From Octopus sinensis (taxonomy: Eukaryota), in contig NC_043014.1 of NCBI RefSeq assembly GCF_006345805.1, positions 8,184,001-8,248,000 on the forward strand: a stretch of DNA of 64,000 nt. Reading direction: 5' to 3'. This document shows positions 4,922 to 57,119 of this stretch, piece after piece. Each line of letters begins with the position of its first letter. Positions within the stretch are counted from its first letter, which is position 1. The notes under the pieces are model-generated. The model made no database searches. It saw only the letters and a list, made by a program, of their open reading frames with translations, and had not been told where the DNA came from. The translations under genes and the position numbers were made by a program.

Positions 4922-6547
4922 CAGTTGCGGCCAAAATGTTCAGAACGGTATTGTTTTCGTCAGAAAAGTAGGTATAAGTTTTTATCAAAGTTGTTTTATA
5001 TTCTATAATTTTCACAGACAATAAATACGATATTATTTGTTATTGTCTGATATCTTGGTGTAATTTGAGAGGAAAATACAAAAATTATGGATGATTTAGT
5101 GATTTACTGCAAAACCCATGGCGGCCAAAAGGATCAGAACGGTTGCTTTTACTCCGTGTTTTAGTATATTTAACTGGCGAACTCTAATGTTTTGAATTTT
5201 TTTACGTGACGGTTCGTTTACTAAACATTAGTAAGAATATCTGCAGTGTACTTTGTTAATATAATGCCACTTACTCCGTTACCAATTCGTCAGCATATTA
5301 TTAAGCTTCGAAAGAAGGATAATTTAAGTATTGGGTCTATTGCAAAGATTGTTAACAAGTCAAAAAGTGTTGTTCACGGTATTCTTAAGGTCTAAAATGA
5401 TTGTGGTTCGTGTGAAGCAAGAAAGTCTACAGGTAGGCCAAGAAAAACGACCAAGAGAGATCGTGCTATGGTAAAGTTGGTTAAAAAGGACAGATTTAAA
5501 ACTGCTGCTGCTGTTTCTCAGGAAATGAGCATTGTATTGAAGAAAACTTTATCCCGAAAAACTGTGTCTCGTCGTTTAGTTGAACATGACCTACAAGCAA
5601 GAGCACCTGCAGTGAAGCCACTGATCAGCTCCAAAAATAAAAAGTGTCGTCTTACCTTTGCAACCGAACATGTGTTGTGGTCTCAAGAAAAATGGCAAAC
5701 GGTGCTTTTCAGTGATGAATCTAAGTTTATGTTATTTGGCTCAGATGAGAAAAGGTACGTTCGTAGAAAAGTAGGTGAAAAATTGTCACCTAAATGCCTT
5801 AAAACTAGTGTTAAATTCGGTGGAGGAAGTGTCATGGTTTGGGGGATGATATCTGGAGATGGTATGGGCCCTTTGTTGCGATTACATAGAAAGGTAAATG
5901 CAGGAGTTTATAAACAACTTGTAAAAGATCATGTCTTGCCTGTGCTGAGAAATTCAACTAAGCGACCACCCATATTCACGCAGGACAATGCCCCATGTCA
6001 CAAGGCTAAGGCAGTCATGAACTTCCTAAAGGCTGAAAAGGTTATTGTTATGGATTGGCCTGCTCAAAGCCCAGATCTCAATCCTATTGAAAATGTGTGG
6101 AATATTCTAGGAGAACGTTCGAAAGCCAGAAATCCTAAAACAACCGAGCAATTATGGAAAGCCCTTCAGGAAGAATGGAATAAGATCACCCAGCAAGAAA
6201 TTGAAAATTTAATTTCCTCATGCAGTCGAAGATGTCAAAGTGTGATTGAAGCTAAAGGACTTCACACTAAATATTAAATAATTCCAGTATTCTCTGTCAT
6301 TTTTGATTATTTTGTTATTTTTTCAACCGTTCTGATCATTTTGGCCGCCATGGGTTTTGTAGTAAATCACTAAATCATCCATAACTTTTATATTATCCTC
6401 TCAAATTACACTAAAATCTCAGACAATAACAAATAATATTGTATTTATTGTCTGTGAAAATTATAGAATATAAAACAACTTTGATAAAAACTTATACCTA
6501 CTTTTCTGACGAAAACAATACCGTTCTGAACATTTTGGCCGCAATTG
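4922..6547 (+). mobile_element. Full-length Tc1-family (DD34E) transposon, IR/DR type
   Basis: TA at 4920-21 and 6548-49; ~220-bp TIRs starting CAGTTGCGGCCAAAATGTTCAGAACGGT, with an inner direct repeat gcggccaaaaggatcagaacggt. Confidence 0.97.
5264..6277 (+). pseudogene. Tc1 transposase, 337 codons with one premature TAA (5393-5395)
   Basis: MPLTPL..GRPRK..FSDESK..QDNAPCH-(34 aa)-SPDLNPIE; ATG at 5264 is in frame with ORF 5468-6277. Confidence 0.93.
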
Positions 6548-9242: not shown

Positions 9243-10658
9243 CTCCTTTCTGTCTTATACTTCGTCTTATCCTCTTTTTCTCTCTCCTTTTCCTTTCTCA
9301 TCATTTTCCCTTCGACTATTCACGTGAAATCTTTACAATTACATTCCCTCTACCTCATGACATGGATGCTTCTCTCCCTCTTTTTCTCTCTCCCTCTTTT
9401 TCTCTCTCCCTCTTTTCTTCTCTCCTTTCCTTTTTCCCTCCTTTTCTCTAAATACGTGACGGCCTTACCGACGGGCTAAGTAACGTAATGACGAGCAGAA
9501 TTATTATTGCAGCCTTACTCCTTGTGCTCTCTCTTTCTCTCTGCCTTTTTCTCCCCCTCTCTCTCTCTCGCTCCTCTCATTATCTCTCTTTCTCTCTCTC
9601 CCTCCCTTTCGTTCGCTCTCTTTCTTTCTCTCCCTCCCTTCCTCTTCTTCTTCTTCTCCTCATTTTTTCCTTCATCTTTTTCTTCTTTCACACAAAAAAT
9701 ATGGCAAATATATCATTGCTTCCCCAATCGATTAAGAGAGCAAATTGGTTGAGTTTTTTTATCGTCAACTAAAAGCGTTTTGCGATACTTCACACGATTT
9801 TCTGCACTAAGAGTGCAAATCTCACTGAAATCAACTTTGCCTTTCATCCATTCGAGATCGATAAATATAAAAGAAATGCAATAGTGCGACAACAATGTCA
9901 TCATTCTGGGTTTGTTCTCTCTTACTCTTTTACTCTTTTACTTGTTTCAGTCATTTGACTGTGGCCATGCTGGAGCACCGCCTTTAGTCGAGCAAATCGA
10001 CCCCAGGACTTATTGTATCGGTCGCTTTTGCCGAACCGCTAAGTTACGGGAATCCTGGAATCGAAATGCTTAGCAGTATTTCGTCCGCCGTTACGTTCTG
10101 AGTTCAAATTCCGCCGAGGTCGACTTTGCCTTTCATCCTTTCGGAGTCGACAAATTAAGTACCAGTGTCGATATAATCGATTTAATCCGTTTGTCTGTCC
10201 TTGTTTGTCCCCTCTGTGTTTAGCCTTTTGTGGGCAATAAAGAAATAAGGAGCTTGCTTCCCAGTCACATGGTTCCGGGTTCAGTCCCACGCGGCACCTT
10301 GGGCAAATGTCTTCTACTTTAGCCTCGGACCGACCAAAGCCTTGTGAGACGGAAACTGAAAGAAGCCCGTCGAATATATGTGTGTGGGAGTGTGCGTGTG
10401 TGTGCTTGTGTTTTTCCCCTCACCATCGCTTGACAACCGATACTGTTATGTTTACGTCCCCGTAAATTAGCGGTTCGGCAAAAGCGACCGATAGAATAAG
10501 TACTAGGCTTACAAAGAATAAGTCCTAGGGTTAATTTGTTCGATTAAAGGTGTTGTTCCAGCATGGCCGCAGTCAAATGACTGAAACAAGGAAAAGAATA
10601 AAAGAATACATACATACATACATACATACATACATACATACATACATACATACATACA

Positions 10659-13810: not shown

Positions 13811-13929
<119 letters not shown>

Positions 13930-15011
13930 TTTCGGAATTAGAGATAGATATACAAGAAACAAGCACAGAAAAAGCTAGGCGCATGAAAACCCGTGCCAAA
14001 ACTGCGGCCTTAGATATTCTGAATAATAAATGGCAAGAAAAACCTCTCTATGGCAAATACCCAAAGAGAGCGAATAATGCAGATATCGACAAAGCCCTGA
14101 CCCATCAATGGCTAATGGCCTCTGGCTTAAAATCTGAAACAGAGGGGTTTATCATAGCAGCTCAAGATCAATGCCTACCAACAAGAAACTACCAGGCCAA
14201 CATATTAAAGATCAGAAGCAGTCCAACGTGTCGTGTATGCAAGCAACAAAATCAAACCATTGACCATGTGGTCTCCAAGTGCAGTCTTCTAGCGCCTACA
14301 GAGTATCTCAACAGGCACGATAGAGCTGCACAATATATTCACTGGGTAATCTGTAAAAACCTGGATTTGCCCCATGAAAAAAACTGGTGGGAACACAAAC
14401 CACCCCCAGTGCTTGAAAATGACCACATCTCACTCCTCTGGAACTTCACCATTCAAACTGACAGGAAGATAGATGCAAATAGGCCAGACATCATATTGAA
14501 AAACTTCAAACAAAGAACATGCCTCCTCATTGATATGACTGTCCCAATCGATATAAACGTATCTGTCAAGACCTACCAAAAACTGAGCAAATATAAAGAT
14601 CTTGAAATAGAAATCAGCAAAATGTGGAAGCTGAAGACTAAAACAATACCTGTTGTCATAGGTGCCCTGGGAATGATAGCAAAAGGGGCTTCTAGCTACC
14701 TAACTCAGATACCAGGAAACCCAAAAATGGCAGAAGTTCAAAAGATAGTGCTCATGGGAACTGCTCATATCCTACGCAAAATACTCTCTATGTAATCTCA
14801 AGGTTTAAAACAAACATAATTTTCGGTTTAAAAAAAAAAAAAAAAAAAAACCTTTTTTTTTTAGACATTCATTAGTACAACATCCCCACCCCCCAAATAT
14901 ATGGCACACTAGGCGTAACAACAACATGAACTTCCAACCCTGTTGTCTCTTGAGGTCTCTGGGTGAGACTTGGAGCCAACTTGTACAAATATAAAGCAAA
15001 AGTCAAACATA

Positions 15012-21440: not shown

Positions 21441-21858
21441 AAGGCGGCGAGCTGGCAGAATCGTTAGCGCGCCGGGCGAAATGCTTAGCGGTATTTCGTC
21501 TGCCGCTACGTTCTGAGTTCAAATTCCGCCGAGGTCGACTTTGCCTTTCATCCTTTCGGGGTCGATTAAATAAGTACCAGTTACGCACTGGGGTCGATAT
21601 AATCGACTTAATCCGCTTGTCTGTCCTTGTTTATTCCCTCTGTGTTTAGCCCCTTGTGGGCAATAAAGGAACAGGTATTTCGTCTGTCGTTACGTTCTGA
21701 GCTCAAATTCCGTTGAGGTCGACTTTGCCTTTCATGCTTTCGGGGTCGATTAAATAAGTACCAGTTACGCACTATGGGTCGATATAATCGACTTAATCCG
21801 TTTATCTGTCCCTGTTTGTCCCCTCTGTGTTTAGCCCCTTCTGGGTAGTAAAGAAATA
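21441..21858 (+). mobile_element. SINE family A, head plus 2 units
   Basis: 19-bp TSD ggtatcagtcacctgttca at 21421 and 21859; empty-site homolog at ~7231-7290. Confidence 0.93.
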
Positions 21859-22100
21859 GGTATCAGTCACCTGTTCAGCTATCTAGACCTTATATCTAAA
21901 CCCGTTAATTAATTTTAAAGAAAAGTGAATATATAAATGGTTTCAAACACAGGTTGTGTCTATTTTTTTTATTTACGCAGCGTATGTGGTGTCAAAATAA
22001 AAAGTGTTTTCTTTGCATGCATAATGATTCATTAATGATATATATATATATGCACCCTCCCACACATACTCATACATACATTTATGAGTATATATATAAT

Positions 22101-22149
<49 letters not shown>

Positions 22150-22994
22150 AATTCAAATTATTACATTATATAAAAGGGCTTAGTAAAATAAATTACTTTG
22201 CCGCATACTGAACTCATTAGAAATAGCAGCTAAAAAAACTTTTTTAAAACTATTTCCAATACTTAAAGAAAACCTCTCTCATATAGTGTTTGCTCAATTC
22301 AACTCACGCAAATATGGGGGTAGAGACATTAAAAAATCAAGTGCAAAGGTTATTTGAGAACGTACGTTTCAAGATTAGTCAAAATTCGACATTTCTATCA
22401 TCAGCTCAGAACTCCCTGGTTTGGATTTGAAACACACTGAAAGTAGGAGCATACCCTTTCGGCTTCCTCTCGCTTCTGAAGATCTGCTCGTAACTAACAG
22501 TGCCAACAAACTCAAAAATGCAAGCGAAGAATTTCTGCTCTCCCCTTTCCACCAGCGTGGGTTAAAATCAGTAACACACTATGCTTTTTTCGGTAAAACC
22601 GCGGCATTATATAGAGAGAGATGAATTAAATATTTTCAACAATTGAGGGTAAAATAATTAATTAATCAATTTCACCAAGTATTCAGTATGCAAAGGGACC
22701 ATTTAAGGCGAATTCAAATTATTACATTATATAAAAGGGCTTAGTAAAATAAATTATTTGCGTGAGTTGAATTGAGCAAACACTATATGAGAGAGGTTTT
22801 CTTTAAGTATTGGAAATAGTTTTAAAAAAGTTTTTTTAGCTGCTATTTCTAATGAGTTCAGTATGCGGCAAAGTAATTTATTTTACTAAGCCCTTTTATA
22901 TAATGTAATAATTTGAATTCGCCTTAAATGGTCCCTTTGCATACTGAATACTTGGTGAAATTGATTAATTAATTAATTTTACCCTCAATTGTTG

Positions 22995-22998
<4 letters not shown>
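22150..22998. mobile_element. Penelope pseudo-LTR/retrozyme-like element: 561-bp unit plus tandem overlap plus inversion
   Basis: 22150-22196 repeated at 22711-22756; 22755-22998 is an inverted copy spanning the unit junction; (TA)n flanks. Confidence 0.8.
22355..22408 (-). ncRNA. Type-I hammerhead ribozyme motif
   Basis: tgag-CTGATGA-stem II-GAAAC gtac GTT-ctca. Confidence 0.75.
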
Positions 22999-23050
<52 letters not shown>

Positions 23051-23084
23051 CCTCCCACACACACTCATACATACATTTATGAGA

Positions 23085-23140
<56 letters not shown>

Positions 23141-24127
23141 CCTCCCACAGACACTCATACATACATTTATGAGTACTCTGGGACTTTGTTTAGATATATA
23201 TCATTAATGAATCATTATGTATGCAAAGAAAACACTTCTTTTTTTGACATCACATACGCTGCGTTAATAAAAAAATAGACACAACCTGTGTTTGAAACCA
23301 TTTATATATTCACTTTTCTTTAAAATGAATTAACGAGTATGTATGTATGTATGTATGTATGTATGTATGTATGTGTACATAGCATATATGGTACATAGCA
23401 TATAAGTTATGCGAAACGTAATGGGTCTTCCATACCTTTTAATGAAACAACGCGTGATCGAATTAAAACGTGTTTGTCTCCAAAATAAAATCACGTAAAC
23501 AAAAGGGAGATACGAAGTTGTTTTCACATTAAGGCAAAAGAAAATAGGATATGATACGATGAGAAGCAGAAGAATAACACGTGTTGAAATGCGTGTTGCA
23601 TATAAATGAGCTGTAATTGTCATTATAATTTTGTCTTAAGACTATTTTAATTATAATTGAAATCTATGATGGTTCTTTACGTTCTGAGTTCAAACTCCAC
23701 CGATGATACCTTTGCCTTTCATCATTTCGGGTTTGATAAAATAAATTACCAATCAAATATTGGGTTCGATGTAATCTGCTAACCCTCTAGACCTTAAATC
23801 GCGGTTTAGTGCCATCGACCCCAGTGTTCATCGACCCCGAAAGGATGAACGGTAAAGTCGACCTCGGCGGAATTTGAAATCAGAACGTTAGCGACCTATT
23901 TCTTTACTACCCACAAGGGGACAAACACGGAGAGGACAAACAAGGACAGACATACGGATTAAGTCGATTACATCGACCCCAGTGCGTAACTGGTACTTAA
24001 TTTATCGACCCCGAAAGGATGAAAGGTAAAGTCGACCTCGGCGGAATTTGAACTCACAACGTAACGGCAGATGAAATACCGCTAAGTATTTCGCCCGGCG
24101 TGCTAACGTTTCTGCCAGCTCACCACT

Positions 24128-24188
<61 letters not shown>

Positions 24189-24643: not shown

Positions 24644-25001
24644 GAATAATAATAATAATTTCTTTATTGGCCACCAGGGCCGAACACAATAAATGGAGGA
24701 CGATACACAGATGAGGGACAATGAGGCTAAGCGTATAAACAGCCAAGAAACACAACAATTAACAAAGAGATTAAATTAACAATATGGTTCCCCAATAGGA
24801 TGGAGTTCCGCCGTAAGGTGACCAAAGAGATCTCACGCACTTTGGACTCCTTAACACCAACGGCTCCTCAGGAAGACACCTTTTCTTCTCCTTTCTATCT
24901 GGCCTACAGGCGCACAATTAGAGCAGGCCCATTTACGCTGTTCATTCTTGCCACATTCACCCACCTTTCAACGATTTTACTGGGTGACGGTACCTTCTTC
25001 T

Positions 25002-25234
25002 AAGGTGGCGAGCTGGCAGAATCGTTAGCACGCCGGGCGAAATGCTTAGCGGTATTTCGTCTGGCGCTACGTTCAGAGTTCAAATTCCGCTGAGGTCCAC
25101 TTTGCCTTTCATCCTCTCGTGGTCGATTAAATAAGTACCAGTTACGCACTGGGGTCGATATAATCGACTTAATCGGTTTGTCTGTCCTTGTTTGTCCCCT
25201 CTGTGTTTGGCCCCTTGTGGGTAGTAAAGAAATA
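25002..25234 (+). mobile_element. SINE family A
   Basis: TSD ggtaccttcYtct at 24989 and 25235. Confidence 0.92.
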
Positions 25235-25569
25235 GGTACCTTCCTCTCCAGCCTCACTTCCCTTTTCAGATGGAAATGGACCGTCTGACAAGCGGTACCT
25301 ATCCCTTCCACGGGAAGCAGAGGAGCAAACGCACCAGCCCGCTCAGCTACGAAGCGGAACAAGGGACGGCATTCAGGTGGTAGTATATGATGAATGCAAT
25401 ATACGCATTCGCCACCTTCATCCATTTCTGGTTGGGACTGGCCACCCTGTCTGTCACCTCGCCCCAGATCGTGTCCACTAGCAGATCCAGACCGAACTAG
25501 ACCCCGAGCAACTTAACAGGTTCTTCTTTCGTCCAGCGCCCCACCACGCTGTCGTTTGGTATGGGCCTG

Positions 25570-25788
25570 GCAGAAACGTTAGCACGCCGGGCGAAATGTG
25601 TAGCCGTATTTCGTCTGCCGTTACGTTCTGAGTTCAAATTCCGCCGAGGTCGACTTTGCCTTTCATCCTTTCGGGGTCGATAAATTAAGTACCAGTTACG
25701 CACTGGAGTCGATGTAATCGACTTAATACCTATGTCTGTCCTTGTTTGTCTCCTCTGTGTTTAGCCCCTTGTGGGTAGTAAAGAAATA
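25570..25788 (+). mobile_element. SINE family A (5'-clipped)
   Basis: TSD ggtatgggcctg at 25558 and 25789. Confidence 0.92.
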
Positions 25789-28284
25789 GGTATGGGCCTG
25801 CCTCTCCAAGTGCCGAACTGCAGGCCCACTGACTTTTCCTGATTGATCATTGGTCCTGTCACCGCTTCGTATTCCCTTAAGGTAGTGCCGACCATCTCGA
25901 TTTCCGAAATGCTTGATACTATCACGGTGACGTCATCCGCATACGCCGATACGAACCTTCCGCATCCCAATTCACGCGGGATGTCCCTCGAAACCTCCAA
26001 CATCCGCAGTAATGGCTCGAGTACCAGTACGTAGAGAAGCAGGGAGAGTGGGCATGCTTGACTTATCGAACGTGCAATACTAAACGATTCCGAGAGGTAA
26101 CCATTTTACTTTGACTTCCAAACAGATGTCGCTGTACATTGCAGTTATCCAGCCTCTGAAAACGGGACCGAAACCAGTCGCCTTCTTTACCAACCCTCTC
26201 TATGATATATCGCGTGAGGTGTAAGTTGCTGTGTGTAATTCTACGCATCATTCACCAACGACAAGCGCCAACCTCTTTCTAACACCTTAGCCAAAATTTT
26301 GTAATCTGTATTTAGCAAAGTTGCCGGCCTTAAGTTATCAACAATGATCCCTTTGTTCGGATGATTTCTCAGTAGCGCCACCACACCTCGGCTCACAGAT
26401 CCAGGTATTCTCCCATTCTGCTACCAGTTGCGGTAGACTTCTACCAAAAGCTCACCAGACAAGTCTGGCATATGTATATGAAACTAGAAGGGCGGACCAT
26501 CCAATCTCTCTCGTGCAACTAACCAACGCGTTACGTATATCTTCAGCTGTTATCGGCATTTCGCTGAACTCCAGGTTCCTGGCCGAACGCCGTTGCATGC
26601 CATCAAGGTAGGAAATGAAGTTTACCTCCTCCTACGGGCCACCACGCACCCCGTACAGTTCAGCAAAGTGCCGCTCAAATTCTGAACACATCTGCTTCGA
26701 CTCGTGTAGCATGTACCCGCTCTGACCCCTCAAAGACCGAATTGTAATTTTATTACCACATTGCGCCTCGGCCACCCGGGCCCATTGAACGGCTTTCGTT
26801 CCCTTCTGCTTCAGAACATGCACCCTAGCGCTGGTAATGCAACCTTCTTGCTTGGTGTTAAAGAATTGGTTCAGAACCAATCTCTCTGTCAGCGCGTCGG
26901 TTGCTGTTTCTGAGTGCCTCTTCTAATTTTCTAACTAGGTCTCCCTCTACTTTCTTGTCTCCTCCGTCGCTAGTTCTCCGCTAAATTCTACAGCTTCTAC
27001 TCTAATCGCCCGTTTTAGACCCCTCCCCACCATCACTCCCACCGATTGTTGACAACTGCACCCGTCAACTTTCGATAGACTAACTTGTTAAGCCGGTCTC
27101 TGAAACTTTGACGCACTGAGGACGCTTTCAGCTTCCAGTATCCGGGTCCCTGCCTATGGAGCCTGTCTAGGTCAACCGTAGAGATCATAGATTTGTGGTC
27201 TGTGTAGCTGACGAATTAAAATTGTGGATACCCTATACTATTCCTATCTGCTGACCTACAAAATACCCTGTCTAGATAAGATCTGGATGACCCGACACTT
27301 TACCCATGTCCACACTGGAATGTTCGGCAAATCCAGTCTGAACCTCTCCGCCAGCTGGAAACGTGTGAACAGGTTTGCGAGGCTTGCACACTGCATTTTC
27401 TATCCGCTAGCCCCACCCAATCCACACGTGCATCCAAAATGGTGTTCCAATCGCCAACTAATACTAAAGTGCGAGATGTCCCTAGAAAGGCCTCCAAACG
27501 TCTGAAGAACTTCGGCTGCCCCACTCCAGTCGGTGCGTACACTGCGACCAGTCTAAAAGAACTGCCTTCGTTATCGTTAACGTCCAGAACCAATGACTTA
27601 CCTTCCGGATCCAGGAAGACCGACCATATCTCGAGATCCAGGCCTTTTCTGGACAACACTGCCACCCCACACTCCATTACCGGTCAACAAAGAGATGCGA
27701 AAATCTCAAAGTCATAAAAAATGGGAGCCAAAGAGCGTGTGTCCACGAGGATGGTTTCATTGACGGCTGTTATATCCAGACTTAGCGACCTGTGGTTGTT
27801 GCGCAAGCGTCCTTGCTTCCACGACGACCCCAGGCCATGTACATTTATACAACCTGCTTTAAGAACCGCCATGCTGGCCAGGAAGTAAAGAAAGGAAAAG
27901 GGGAGCGTAACTTACCCTCCTAGGGCTGTTTGTGGTCGAGTGGTTCTCACATCCTGTCCGTTTTGTTGGGTTCATTTGGGAACCTCCTTAAAATCCATCT
28001 GCTGGCAGTTACACTGGGTGATCCACTGTCATACGAGTAGTTCCGCTTAATGCTCGTACAAGTTTATGTCATTCACACCATCTCTTTACTCTTTACTCTT
28101 TTCTTGTTTCAGTCATTTGACTGCGGCCATGCTGGAGCACCGCCTTTAGTCGAGCAACTTGACCCCGGGACTTATTCTTTGTAAGCCCAAAGTCTCTTTT
28201 GCCGAACCGCTAAGTGACGGGCCCATAAACACACCAGCATCGGTTGTCAAGCAATGCTAGGGGGACAAACACAGACACAAACAT

Positions 28285-44252: not shown

Positions 44253-44675
44253 AAGTAAGTGAATGAATTATTCTATGTTTATCGTCAGCATGGAAAATTC
44301 GTTTAACCGAAACCTGGGTAGCAAATTCACGTCAGAAAACACGGTTGAAGCGACCTGACAAGGGTAGAAACTCTGGGTTCATGTGTAGAAATTTGTGTGT
44401 TGTATATGAATAAATGAAAGAATGGAGTCGAACGAAGATGTTAACAAAATTCCTTTACTCTCGACACATTATCGCTTTGTTTACCATGTAGGCAATCATC
44501 GAAACTTTTGTTTGTCTTGTTGTCGAGAGAGGCTCCCTTTCTTTCCTGATGAGGAGATTGCATAATGCACCCTTTATTCCTTTGGAATGAGAACATGCTG
44601 TCTTCGAAACATGTGTCGAGAGTAAAGGAATTTTGTTAACATCTTCGTTCGACTCCATTCTTTCATTTATTCATA
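44253..44675. mobile_element. Fold-back hammerhead element, family H1 copy 1
   Basis: 44405-44470 is inverted at 44610-44675; homologous to 46000-46544 and 46631-46892; (TA)n flanks. Confidence 0.82.
44541..44622 (+). ncRNA. Type-I hammerhead ribozyme motif (GUC)
   Basis: ctttc-CTGATGA-ggaga..tcttc-GAAAC atgt GTC-gagag. Confidence 0.85.
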
Positions 44676-44810: not shown

Positions 44811-45123
44811 TCGATTAGAAGTTGTGTTAACCTCATGAAGGGATGGTTTCACCCAAGAAAATTCTGATTCAATACCTAGTATTTGGGGGGAATAGATTTC
44901 CTTAAAATAAAAGGTATATATAAAGCATATAGTTATTATCCATTTAAAAGAAGAAAAGAAAAAGGATATTAGGAAGTGAATGATTGTTTATTATTAACAA
45001 TAAATTGATCATTTTCACTTCTTACAGCTGTTTCAATTAATTTTCAATAATTTAATTAATTTACTAACAAATTTGTACATTAAATTTACATTTATGCGAC
45101 ACGAGTATAATTTCGTCTTGTAA

Positions 45124-45228
45124 TTTTCTGATGAAATTATGCTCATGTCACATAAATGTAAGTTTAATGTAGAAATTTGTAATTGAATTAATTAAACCAT
45201 TGAGTATTAATTGAAACGGCTGTAAGAA
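45124..45228 (+). ncRNA. Type-I hammerhead ribozyme motif (GUA) with a long stem II
   Basis: tttt-CTGATGA-aatta..taatt-GAAAC ggct GTA-agaa; the opposite arm has GAAAC agct GTA. Confidence 0.7.
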
Positions 45229-45280
45229 GTGAGGATCACCAATTTATTGTTAATAATAAACAATTATTAACTTCCTAATC

Positions 45281-45917: not shown

Positions 45918-46002
<85 letters not shown>

Positions 46003-46199
46003 TAAGTAGTTGAATGAATTATTCTAGTATGGATAATTCGGTTAACCGATACCCGGGTAGCAAATTTACGTCAGAAGGCACGGTTGAAGCTACATACCAA
46101 GGGCAGAAATCACGTGCTTTCGTATGGAAATTTGTGTGTTTTTTTACTATAGATAAATGAAAGAATGGAGTCGAACGACGATTTAACAAAATTCCTTTA

Positions 46200-46282
46200 T
46201 TCTCGACATATGTTTCGAAGACTGCATATTCTTAATTCCGAAGGAATAAAGGGTGCATTATGCCGTCTTCTCATCAGGAAAG
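46200..46282 (-). ncRNA. Type-I hammerhead ribozyme motif (GUC)
   Basis: Reverse complement of 46423-46505. Confidence 0.87.
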
Positions 46283-46422
46283 ACAAGGAACTTATGTCAG
46301 CATCATGACGAACAAAAACTTTAAGATGACTGCCCACACGGGGTCCATTGTGATAATGATGCTGACATAAGTTCATAGTGTCATAAGTTCATAGTGTCAT
46401 GATGCTGACATAAGTTCCTTGT

Positions 46423-46505
46423 CTTTCCTGATGAGAAGACGGCATAATGCACCCTTTATTCCTTCGGAATTAAGAATATGCAGTCTTCGAAACATATGTC
46501 GAGAA
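46423..46505 (+). ncRNA. Type-I hammerhead ribozyme motif (GUC)
   Basis: tttc-CTGATGA-gaagacggcata..tatgcagtcttc-GAAAC atat GTC-gaga; palindromic ACATATGT stem III. Confidence 0.88.
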
Positions 46506-46546
46506 TAAAGGAATTTTGTTAAATCGTCGTTCGACTCCATTCTTAT

Positions 46547-46630
<84 letters not shown>

Positions 46631-46633
<3 letters not shown>

Positions 46634-46888
46634 GGATGAATGAATTATCCATTGTTTACCGTTAACATGGAAAATTCAATAAACAGTTATCAGGTTAGCA
46701 AAATTCACGCAAGTAACAAGGATGTAGCGACCTATTCAAAGGTAGAAACTCTGGGTTAATGTGCAGTAATTTGTGTAGTGTAAGTAAATAAATGCAGTTG
46801 AACGCAGAATAAGACCAATGTTGTCTTCGAAACATATGTCGAAAGTAAAAGAATTTGAATAGCATCTGCGTTCAACTCCATTTATTTA

Positions 46889-46892
<4 letters not shown>
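46631..46892. mobile_element. Family H1 copy 3, with only the 3' half of the hammerhead
   Basis: gtcttcGAAACatatGTCgaaag at 46823-46845; short inverted arms. Confidence 0.75.
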
Positions 46893-46974
<82 letters not shown>

Positions 46975-51667: not shown

Positions 51668-52160
51668 TATACACACGTCCATATGCGCGCATACACACAC
51701 ACACACACGGATACGTGAAACGCACATCACTCCACACAGTGCACACACTAAGTTACTTATACACATACACACACACACACTCCCATATGCATACACAATC
51801 CCAGATAATTTTAAGCTCGCCCATACATTTACATGCGCTCACTCCCTTTCACACAAATACACTCATCCTTCTTAGATACACACGCGTTTGTGCACCCTAG
51901 TTCAGCTGGGTCACCGTTATTTTCTCCCTTTCACTCTACATTTTTCTTCCGATCATTTCATCATGTTGAACTTATTAATCCCTACACCTTTTTTTCTCTC
52001 CCTTTTTTTTTTCTTTTTGTTCTCACTCCATTTTTTTCCTCTTAACATTTACTGTCGAAGAGTGTAGGCTCGAAACTTTTCCGTTCTTCCGGAGAGTCAA
52101 ACTAATACACCTTCTCGTAGTTCTCTCACATGCCTTCGTCTTTTGTTTTCAGTAAAATTG

Positions 52161-54179: not shown

Positions 54180-56610
54180 GCGTAAATACCTCGACCGTGT
54201 CCTTGCCCCCCTAGTGGCATCTCTTCCCTCCCACATCCACGATACCAACCATGCTCTCCGGCTTTTCAACTCTTTCTCTTTTCCTCCCGGCTCCTCCAAA
54301 TCCTCCTTTTTACTATGGACATCCAAGCCTCTATACTGTTATCCCCACCACGAAGGACTGCAGGCCCTTCGACACTTTCTTGACCTCCGTCTAAACCCTG
54401 TCCTGACACCTCCACACTCATTCGTCTGCCGAACTTGTCCTTTCTGAACTGCTTCTCGTTCGCGGGCGAGTTCTACCATCAGGTCTCGGGAGTGGCCATG
54501 GGAACGCGAATGGGCCCCAACTATGCGAACCTGTTCGTTGGCTATGTTGAGCCCAAATATTCTCTAATTTCACTGTCCCACTCCTGAACGATATGGTCGT
54601 TACATTGACGACATTATCGGTGCCACCTCACTCGCCGTGAACATCTAGATTCCTTCTCCTCTTTCGTCCAATCTTCCATCCAGCCTCCACTTCACTCCAC
54701 TATCTCCAACACCTCTGTCTCCTTCCTCGACATTTCGGTTAGCATTTTCACTCCACTCTTACCACCTCCATCACTACAAACACACAGACTCACACTCATA
54801 CCTCAACTTCTCTTCCTCCCACCCAGAACACACCAAGCTTTCCATCCCCTATTCCCAATTCCTCCGTCTACGTAGGCTCTGTAGTGACGACCATGACTTT
54901 GAGACTCAGTCTCAACGTATGGCTCACCACTTCACCCTACGTGGATAACCCTCCACTATCCACACCGCCCTTGCCAGAGCACGGTCCGTGGACCGTGTAT
55001 CTGCTCTCTCTCCCCGAACCCGCCCTGTATTCTCCCGCCTCCCTTTTCCCCTCACTTACCACCCCACGACCCTACGTCTCCAACGCACCATTCTTCGAGC
55101 TTCCGTCATCTCCGTCCGACCCGTCCACTTCACACCTCTTCCCTAACCGACCCCTCCCCTCTTTAAAACGAGCCCACACCTTCGAGACCTTTTGGTCCAT
55201 AGCTCCTTCCTGACCCTACTCCAACACCGGCTCGTTCCCCTGCTCCCGCCCACATTGCTGCACTTGCCCTTACCTCTCCAACACCACCCGCCTCACTAGC
55301 ACCCACCATCGACCCTATCCCATCATCCACTCCTTCACCTGCACCTCCAGCAATATTATCTATTGCGTCTCTTGCTCTCTCTGCAATTCCTTGTACATCG
55401 GACAAACGGGACGCCGCTTGGCTGACCGGTTCGCGGAACACCTTCGTGACATCCACCTTGCGAACGAACACCGGTCTCACGCCATTTCCGCTCCACCGGT
55501 CACTCCTTGCAACACCTATCTGTGTTCGGTTTGTCCTTACACAGAGGCCATCCGGATTCCGTTTGCCGCGCGCCGTGAACAGGAATTAATCTTCTCTCTT
55601 CGCTCTTTTATACGCCATTTGGTCTCACTCTCTCCCCCCCCTCCTCATCAACCCCCCTCTCCCCTCCTCACCTATCCTTCCCCCCGACCCCTACTTCTTC
55701 AGTCCTTCATCCTTTCACCCCTACTCCCCTTCCCTCTTCCCCTCCTCCTTCCTCTGCTCCCTCACTCCCTTCTCTCTCCCCTCCCCCTCTTTCCTCTTTC
55801 CTCCTTCCTCCCCCTCCTCCTCCCCTTCCTTCTCCCCTCCTCTCCTCTTCCCCCCTCCCTCTCCTCTCCCCCTCCCCCCCTCTTCTTCCCCTCCCCTTCT
55901 CCCCTCTTCTCCCCTCCCCCTCTTCTCCTCACTACACCACACGACTTTACACATCACATCATATATGATGTGCCATACTAATACATACACCAACTAATAC
56001 ATACTAATACGTACTAATACATACTAATAACTACTAATACATACACCAACCCTATACAACACACGTCCAGACCCCATACGCACTTATACTCTCTCATACC
56101 ACACACACACACTTATACATACTAATACGTACTAATACATACTAATACATACTAATACATACACCAACCCCATACATACGCCTGTCCAGACCTATCCTAC
56201 GCACTAATACTCTCTCATACACACACACACACACACCCTTATACATACTAATACATACACCAACCCTATACATACACACGTCCAGGCCCCTCCTACGCAC
56301 TAATAGGTGGTCATTCAACCCTGTTATCAACCCTATTATCTCCCCTTATTTCGCTCTTGCGTCTCATGTTTGATCTTTGACTTCTGGCCGAAATCAGATC
56401 GCCATGTTGATTCGTTAGTTACTGCACGCATTTTTTTTCTCTCCTTCTTTCTGTGTTTTTTTTCTCTCTGTGTATCTTTCTGTTGAAGAGCGTAGGCTCG
56501 AAACGTTAAAGCATTGTTTTATTTATATTTCCTGAGCGCCATACTAATACAATTGTTTGTTTGTTTTCCACCTGCCTTCGTCTTTTGTCTATTTTCATAA
56601 AGCTTCCCGT

Positions 56611-56611
<1 letters not shown>
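54180..56611 (+). mobile_element. 5'-truncated Penelope-like retroelement (RT plus GIY-YIG, Neptune-like Cys linker), frameshifted
   Basis: GVAMGTRMGPNYANLF, RYIDDI, FLDI, IPYSQFLRLRRLCS, CxxxxCCxC, IIYCVSC..LYIGQTGR..RFAEH; ends at (TA)n. Confidence 0.92.
56476..56511 (+). ncRNA. Variant minimal hammerhead in a Penelope pLTR (CUGUUGA core)
   Basis: cttt-CTGTTGA-a-gagc gtag gctc-GAAACGTT-aaag; sister motif CTGTCGA at 52052-52076. Confidence 0.55.
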
Positions 56612-56664
<53 letters not shown>

Positions 56665-56673
<9 letters not shown>

Positions 56674-57083
56674 GTCAAATGCGATACAATAAAAATTATT
56701 ATTATCGCCGGTGTTCTAGTACACGCCATATATTATTCATATATAAGTACATAAAAGGCGAAGTGTGTACTAGATACACAAAAGCTGGATAAATTTAATG
56801 AGATGAAAATTAAAAACTTTTACAAACTTAGTTCTTCTTATACTGCAGTTTCGCCTATTTCAGCAATAAAAATAATATTTATTTACTCAGGTAGGCTCTT
56901 CAGTAAGATTCCTGTTATTATGGGAAGCGCACATCAATAGAGGCACGTGCGTCTATTAAATTGCTCTTTCTAAACTATTCAAATCACTGCGCAGACTCAG
57001 AACGTACCCGACAAAATAGGGTTTTATGGTATATCGTCTAACGCTCAAAAATTTATCGAGAAAATACGTAAACAAAGTCAAAT
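56665..57083 (-). mobile_element. ORF-less 403-bp terminally redundant hammerhead element (retrozyme-like)
   Basis: gtaaacaaagtcaaat at 56665 and 57068; (TA)n on both sides; internal hammerhead. Confidence 0.8.
56836..56908 (-). ncRNA. Type-I hammerhead ribozyme motif (GUA)
   Basis: tctta-CTGAAGA-gccta..taggc-GAAAC tgca GTA-taaga; stem I and the base of stem II pair perfectly, palindromic stem III. Confidence 0.9.
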
Positions 57084-57119
57084 ATATATATATATATACA
57101 AACATACATACATATATAT

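Follow-up and report, generated by a model that had tools for sequence, protein, structure and literature searches.

What kind of element leaves a short non-coding unit copied past its own start and then turned back on itself, and from which template, is the question raised by an 848-bp insertion (22150-22997) in the 64-kb stretch of Octopus sinensis DNA analysed here (the window, to which all coordinates refer), where (TA)n tracts border it on either side. A sequence-only reading had described the locus as a 561-bp hammerhead unit whose start recurs and is followed by an inverted copy, both strands being taken as the record of a tandem or circular template. The parts of the insertion are listed below, where U denotes a position in the unit.

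22150-22997, minus strand as sense (from ribozyme polarity): whole insertion, 848 bp
22150-22710, minus: unit U, 561 bp, 35% GC, non-coding
22150, minus: U1, putative first reverse-transcription start and element 3' end, by analogy with PMC11167929
22355-22408, minus: type I hammerhead (motif core and helices)
22634-22710, minus: tail in tandem position (U485-561), 77 bp between the two putative priming sites
22711-22756, minus: exact 46-bp repeat of the unit start, a truncated 5' pseudo-LTR
22755-22756, no strand: 2-nt microhomology (forward/inverted overlap) at the head-to-head inversion junction
22755-22919, plus: inverted pseudo-LTR, unit positions 165 to 1, without the ribozyme
22920-22997, plus: tail of the inverted arm, with one extra base and, at its end, AT-rich microhomology with (TA)n; second putative priming site
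22089-22149, no strand: left target tract, interrupted (TA)n
22998-23045, no strand: right target tract, (TA)n
22258-22634, minus: predicted imperfect long-range rod, 22258-22345 paired with 22519-22634, enclosing the ribozyme domain
22201-22213 paired with 22681-22693 (tail), minus: strongest predicted long-range helix, in the same register as 22272-22280 paired with 22614-22622

The ribozyme lies on the minus strand and the element therefore reads from right to left, in the order inverted arm, 46-bp partial copy, unit, and 3' end at 22150. The direct repeat is exact, 22711-22756 being identical to 22150-22195 (46/46 nt) at a spacing of 561; the recurrence of the unit start thus stands in spacing and exactness, and its length is corrected from 47 to 46 nt. 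The first part of the inverted arm (22755-22919) is complementary to 22150-22314 at 165/165 positions, and the second (22920-22997) matches the reverse complement of 22634-22710 apart from an insertion of 1 nt, giving 242/243 identical alignment columns for the 243-bp arm. The arm runs from U165 to U1 and then directly from U561 to U485 without a break across the unit end and start, as had been claimed for an inverted copy of about 245 bp. The forward strand amounts to 607 nt, that is, one unit plus 46 nt (1.08 units with one ribozyme at the locus), and BLAST of the region against the 64-kb window returned the insertion as a single copy.

This layout bears out the proposed Penelope-type product with a partial tandem and an inverted pseudo-LTR (pLTR). 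In print, Penelope-like elements (PLEs) are described with two direct pLTRs and one inverted pLTR carrying a tail (PMC3846280; PMC8557442). At this locus, the partial tandem that forms the direct pLTR is present as the 46-bp exact repeat plus tail at a spacing of 561 bp, and an inverted 5'-truncated copy lies beside the 5' pLTR at 22755-22997. One other hammerhead-bearing PLE-end family, unrelated to the unit, is found in (TA)n in the window at 44253-44673, 46001-46546, and 46630-46893. These sibling insertions each consist of a forward 3' end and a head-to-head inverted arm that overruns it by 154, 160, and 151 bp, respectively; all three tails end at one shared motif, and no tandem copy is present in any of the three. 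In the second of them, 46001-46546, there are two ribozymes, one on each strand, and the junction (~46350-46410) contains a short internal tandem.

It is very improbable that the structure is an assembly or library artefact, such as a fold-back chimera or a mis-join between the (TA)n tracts. Tandem and inverted PLE structures are known to be troublesome for assemblers (PMC8557442), and both the long (TA)n on the two flanks and the near-identical arms would suit such an error, but the inversion is asymmetric and has a 2-nt microhomology, the same design, with its tail end fixed, recurs in three insertions of the other family that are mutually 78-85% identical, and the host flanks belong together, as seen from a 38-bp unit present three times and from outer inverted arms that are 94% alike. 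These outer arms (21880-22037 and 23202-23338; 138 bp, unique in the window) enclose the (TA)n tracts, the 38-bp units, and the insertion and may represent an older foldback or MITE-like host element. The three 38-bp copies that flank the insertion differ by 1-2 bases and an indel. A long target-site duplication (22038-22143 versus 23033-23136) was considered and rejected, as it consists of this thrice-present host unit with the same small differences; any target-site duplication would be masked by the flanking (TA)n. SINE-like repeats occur in many copies, some as inverted pairs (9923-10014 and 10517-10608; 21441-21862, 23827-24130, and 25001-25792), and the abundant SINE that flanks the insertion is presumably of the octopus type.

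The near-identical arms had been read as evidence for a recent event. Arms identical at 242/243 columns and a direct repeat identical at 46/46 positions, compared with 94-97% for the flanking host repeats, make a recent insertion likely, and the 38-bp host units look older because they differ more than the arms do. Near-identical arms are, however, also found in the siblings (67/67, 149/149, and 27/28), which are mutually only ~78-85% alike, a pattern that could reflect either recent arrivals from masters that had diverged or arms homogenised afterwards.

The hammerhead that had been placed at 22355-22408 is found there on the minus strand. It has the core CUGAUGA...GAAA, a 4-bp helix I, a GUU triplet, a helix III of 2 bp inside a 10-nt palindrome, and a weak helix II with U.U at its base followed by A-U, G-C, and A-U. 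The motif is located 209 nt from the element 3' end in the pLTR region, and cleavage is predicted between 22359 and 22358. All of the CUGANGA / GAAA / NUH core, palindromic helix III, and short helix I of the minimal PLE hammerhead (Cervera 2014) are present, and the G10.1-C11.1 pair that closes helix II in that consensus is absent; a U.U at the base of helix II has been reported in axolotl HHR_Amex2 (PMC7229834). When dinucleotide shuffles of the unit were searched, a strict descriptor (written after the motif was seen) had 0/5000 matches and a loose one 37/5000. Across the 64-kb window the loose descriptor returned six sites, with about one expected by chance. Rfam at the gathering threshold gave no hammerhead in the window, and none of its 11 weak matches at E<=10 within 22100-23050 was a hammerhead.

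Taken in isolation, the 64-nt motif folds no better than shuffles (z +0.58), and the predicted energy of the active fold is -1.8 versus -10.4 for the local MFE. In the predicted fold of the full unit, helix I has a probability of ~0.48 and helix III of ~0.04, and a second ribozyme copy should therefore be needed. A duplex formed through the helix III palindrome is predicted at -11.6 kcal/mol, and hammerheads with such a short palindromic helix III have been described as needing a second copy (PMC4209133). Given this predicted weakness of a lone ribozyme and its predicted need for such a copy, the present insertion, with one ribozyme, would probably be incapable of releasing a monomer by itself.

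Besides the studied insertion, at least five hammerhead-bearing PLE-type pieces are present in the window, pieces of this sort being common in the genome. A ~404-bp hammerhead unit (minus, 56903-56841) lies at 56666-57085 between (TA)n tracts, with a fold z of about -2.8 and a 16-bp terminal direct repeat at ~404-bp spacing; it may be a second mini-element whose copying ran slightly beyond its start, or the repeat may be a target duplication. A degenerate PLE at ~54200-56612 contains RT, CX4CxxC linker (Neptune-like), and GIY-YIG frames and a pyrimidine-rich 3' region that runs up to (TA)n; near 56478-56512, inspection by eye showed a hammerhead-like motif whose core is unusual, and a 3' end related to that of this remnant occurs at ~51989-52160. 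A loose hammerhead match on the minus strand beside (TA)n (52365-52327), which has neither a helix II nor a palindromic helix III, may be due to chance. Other features of the window include a near-perfect 312-bp AT-rich palindrome at 44968-45279 (arms 85-87% complementary, 12-nt spacer, unique in the window), an open 293-codon frame for a Tc1/mariner-type transposase at 5396-6277 (Pfam HTH_Tnp_Tc3_2 and DDE_3), and a 288-codon frame for the C-terminal part of a non-LTR retrotransposon at 13929-14795 (weak zf-RVT), whose translated part 13929-14792 is 77% identical to an Octopus bimaculoides protein, the highest value among the 120 matches listed (others 47-60%), in keeping with an octopus host.

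That the insert lacks an ORF, as first noted, was confirmed. The longest stop-free frame of the unit (81 codons) was equalled in 322/2000 shuffles and a 145-codon frame with two stops in 106/2000, so stop-free frames are no longer than chance. Pfam assigned no family to any of the five unit frames scanned, a homologue search with three candidate frames including the 81-aa frame gave no hit, neither of two unit frames was present in an exact-sequence collection, and tblastn of 13 PLE-like proteins against the unit gave no match at E<=1. A coding origin of the unit was rejected on the shuffles and on these Pfam, homologue, exact-sequence, and tblastn searches. The single ORF with RT and GIY-YIG endonuclease, which is the hallmark of autonomous EN+ PLEs, is missing from the unit. 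A bacterial or archaeal origin or contaminant was likewise rejected, as two exact motifs had 0 matches in genome contigs.

The reading that we consider probable is that the locus arose by one insertion, probably a recent one, of a 561-nt hammerhead mini-element that encodes no protein, a retrozyme-like non-autonomous PLE that was moved in trans by the RT/GIY-YIG protein of an autonomous PLE. The anatomy, the ribozyme motif with its polarity, the non-coding unit, the (TA)n on both sides, and the predicted self-paired fold are features of the locus itself, onto which every enzymatic step is projected from PMC11167929. A minus-strand RNA longer than the unit, either a tandem transcript or a ribozyme-cut monomer that is circular or jumped end to end, would be bound by the PLE protein, whose endonuclease would nick both strands of the (TA)n tract. 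The left 3' end would prime at 22150 (U1) and copy one lap plus 46 nt (607 nt), and the right 3' end would prime at the end of the tail, 77 nt beyond U1 in the 3' direction of the RNA and at a place of AT microhomology with the (TA)n tract, and copy 242 nt. The two cDNAs would then be joined head to head through the 2-nt microhomology. A purified PLE protein has been found to nick and extend both target strands and to start within the RNA at two sites that delimit the tail (PMC11167929), (TA)n targeting by PLEs has been reported (PMC8557442), and typical PLE layouts include non-PLE DNA that was moved in trans between pLTRs (PMC3846280).

Inversion could instead have arisen, the centre being lost, by self-priming or fold-back of one cDNA or by a subsequent rearrangement of the DNA at a (TA)n site prone to palindromes, which we regard as improbable. 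Self-priming has been proposed for Penelope inverted repeats (PMC3846280), and near-identical arms are compatible with one having been copied from the other, but the junction has no palindrome and the sibling arms stop at one fixed motif. Furthermore, the arm contains U165 to U1 plus the tail as one block, which is contiguous nowhere on the forward strand, and fold-back would therefore need an extra switch or deletion.

Priming of the two target strands at separate sites leads to the question of the template. A tandem or circular one had been proposed from both strands; this was supported for the forward strand and not supported for the inverted arm. The forward strand, at 607 nt, is one unit plus 46 nt, and a more-than-unit template is therefore needed. 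The inverted arm shows only the 77-nt tail. In PLEs, a tail is an extension at one end only, given in print as 30-40 bp (PMC8557442; PMC3846280), and has been shown in vitro to span the interval from one internal reverse-transcription start site to the other (PMC11167929). The tail of the studied element is one-sided and 77 bp long, compared with 151-160 bp in the three siblings; since the sibling arms overrun the forward end without any tandem, the overrun is an ordinary PLE tail, and the inverted arm is therefore no independent sign of a tandem or circular template. It does show that the RNA continued 77 nt past the first priming site. By analogy, the 561/1 junction is best taken as a reverse-transcription priming site and not as a ligation scar, as ligation of a circle made by the ribozyme would fall at 22359/22358. 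The inverted arm stops at U165, short of both the ribozyme and 22359/22358, and the forward strand crosses 22359/22358 once. Such a single crossing would match the behaviour on uncleaved RNA, which is the dominant substrate of the PLE protein (PMC11167929). The forward lap requires a tandem transcript, a circle, or an end-to-end jump, and one copy fits each of these. Circular templates were proposed for more-than-unit reverse transcription in 2014 (PMC4209133) and for retrozymes in 2020 (PMC7229834).

As to the mobilising partner, the PLE remnant of the window (~54200-56612) was rejected, as it shares no DNA similarity with the unit. Naiad was also rejected as driver: it targets (TA)n in Octopus but is without canonical hammerheads and long inactive in cephalopods. 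Two short motifs of the unit had no match in the Naiad/Hydra supplement. A Neptune- or Hydra-type driver would fit both the (TA)n targeting and the hammerhead.

Whether 561 nt is a natural monomer at all depends on the unit as a whole, and the competing possibility is that there is none. The 3' end of a long autonomous PLE, cut at 484 nt, would then be accompanied by a second truncated piece (tail plus 46 nt) and an inverted truncated piece. PLE insertions are strongly 5'-truncated and form partial tandems (PMC8557442; PMC3846280), a common tail end of tandem piece and inverted arm is expected from a fixed start site, and the siblings of the window resemble short truncated ends. We nevertheless judge a truncated long PLE unlikely, one point against it being 561 bp without an ORF remnant and the others coming from the predicted fold and from alignments of the unit halves.

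Folded as a circle, the sense unit reaches -140 versus -116 +/- 5.5 kcal/mol for shuffles, with 0/60 shuffles as low and 1/40 block shuffles; the linear unit has a z of -4.17 (0/100 shuffles). Among 14 control windows drawn from 64 repeat-free ones, 12 folded worse than the unit and two about as well or better (z -4.2 and -11.9), the most strongly folding one because of SINE-like repeats in inverted pairs. The antisense strand also beats shuffles (z -2.3 and -3.6). The rod duplex 22258-22345 : 22519-22634 has an energy of -55.7 versus -30.9 (0/1000, with bounds chosen post hoc), and the top four of 66 unbiased block pairs fall along it. In the predicted rod, the ribozyme domain is located at one pole and an AU-rich loop with U1 at the other. 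The rod is equally good in linear order (-146.6) and therefore gives no sign of circularity; its confinement to 22258-22634 and its formation in linear order agree with a truncated long PLE. The rod, however, ends at 22633/22634, the point where truncation would have occurred, and of 394 long-range helices the two most stable (U52-64:U532-544 in the tail and U123-131:U465-473 in the body) lie on one antidiagonal in exact register across that point, which was equalled within 2 nt by 5/401 offsets in a test chosen after the fold was seen. Moreover, two of four alignments of the unit halves run in register through the tail/body border. Pairing of the tail with U1-108 is by itself not significant (155/1000).

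It is the register kept by the two strongest helices across the border that suggests 561 nt as a natural monomer, and with it a retrozyme-like non-autonomous PLE. The internal rod as a decayed older inverted arm has mixed support, DNA-level palindrome tests under four scoring schemes giving 42, 52, 4, and 8 of 1000. A TATA-like run at 22579-22612 on the minus strand, ~200 nt upstream of the ribozyme and with a small GC-rich hairpin set into the rod after it, is a possible internal promoter. A further step, which we put forward tentatively and hold less likely than its opposite, is that the 561 nt would form a rod-like circle of RNA made by the ribozyme, its two poles being the hammerhead and the priming site, and that the insertion would be the footprint left by PLE two-strand priming at two fixed sites on this circle and by rolling past its start.

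Compared with known systems, the insertion resembles EN+ PLEs (Penelope/Poseidon, Neptune, Nematis, and Hydra; Pen2a_Av and Pen3a inserts of Adineta vaga; PMC3846280; PMC8557442) in the partial tandem pLTR, the adjacent inverted 5'-truncated copy, the extension on one arm, the type I hammerhead near the 3' end, and the (TA)n target hiding any target-site duplication. Unlike these, it has no RT/GIY-YIG ORF, is 561 bp and not 3-4 kb long, and has a tail of 77 bp instead of 30-40 bp. With metazoan non-LTR retrozymes (PMC7229834; 10.64898/2026.07.22.740005) the unit shares a non-coding nature, a GC content below 50%, a type I hammerhead with short palindromic helix III, a highly self-paired monomer (in silico for the unit), and a size within 51-972 bp, and for retrozymes both an origin from PLE pLTRs and mobilisation by PLEs have been proposed. 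The 2026 preprint (10.64898/2026.07.22.740005) argues for this pLTR origin of animal retrozymes of 51-972 bp, many of them solo monomers. In contrast, the unit is larger than the 170-400 nt circles shown experimentally, and an inverted arm with tail is not described for retrozymes in the available text of these two sources. Li et al. define an 'active' retrozyme by two or more consecutive hammerhead-bearing units; with only 1.08 units and one ribozyme the insertion is not such an array.

Non-autonomous Chlamys PLEs such as MRC1 of Chlamydomonas (PMC8557442) are likewise non-coding, with pLTRs and head-to-tail insertions, but they occur in a green alga, mostly lack canonical hammerheads, and have a demonstrated similarity to their parents. 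Poseidon PAc of Anolis (PMC11167929) corresponds in the two internal RT starts bounding the tail, the AT-rich target nicked on both strands, the start site in a stem-loop, and the use of uncleaved RNA as template; it differs in being autonomous and in that its mechanism was shown in vitro, whereas that of the unit is modelled on it. Since the insertion qualifies neither as an autonomous PLE nor as an 'active' retrozyme array, we file it as PLE-type and retrozyme-like and claim no proven membership of any named family.

In Octopus vulgaris, recently active Penelope-like families (31 families, 336 insertions) have been described (PMC13282606); the word 'ribozyme' is absent from the main text of that paper, and its repeat library may already contain the unit. 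A literature search on octopus and hammerhead ribozymes and on non-autonomous or twin-priming PLE inversions, with most subscription papers and repeat libraries outside its scope, retrieved neither the unit nor octopus retrozymes. The supplements of two papers had no match to unit motifs, one PMC4209133 file being outside that scope, whose figures and alignments may hold related motifs. The insertion is real but for the most part a further example of an already known PLE layout.

A non-coding unit with the full PLE insertion signature supports the mobilisation of animal retrozymes by PLE proteins, a proposal hitherto based on co-occurrence and pLTR phylogeny. With copies collected across the genome, circular templates could be told from tandem ones and two-strand priming from fold-back, both of them open points of the PLE cycle for which the unit offers a compact test case. 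If the tentative reading of a ribozyme-made circle were true, retrozyme circles would be tied to PLE enzymes by an insertion signature, the unit would represent the first described octopus retrozyme-type family, and the long-proposed circular-template origin of PLE pseudo-LTRs would become testable on a short non-coding element.
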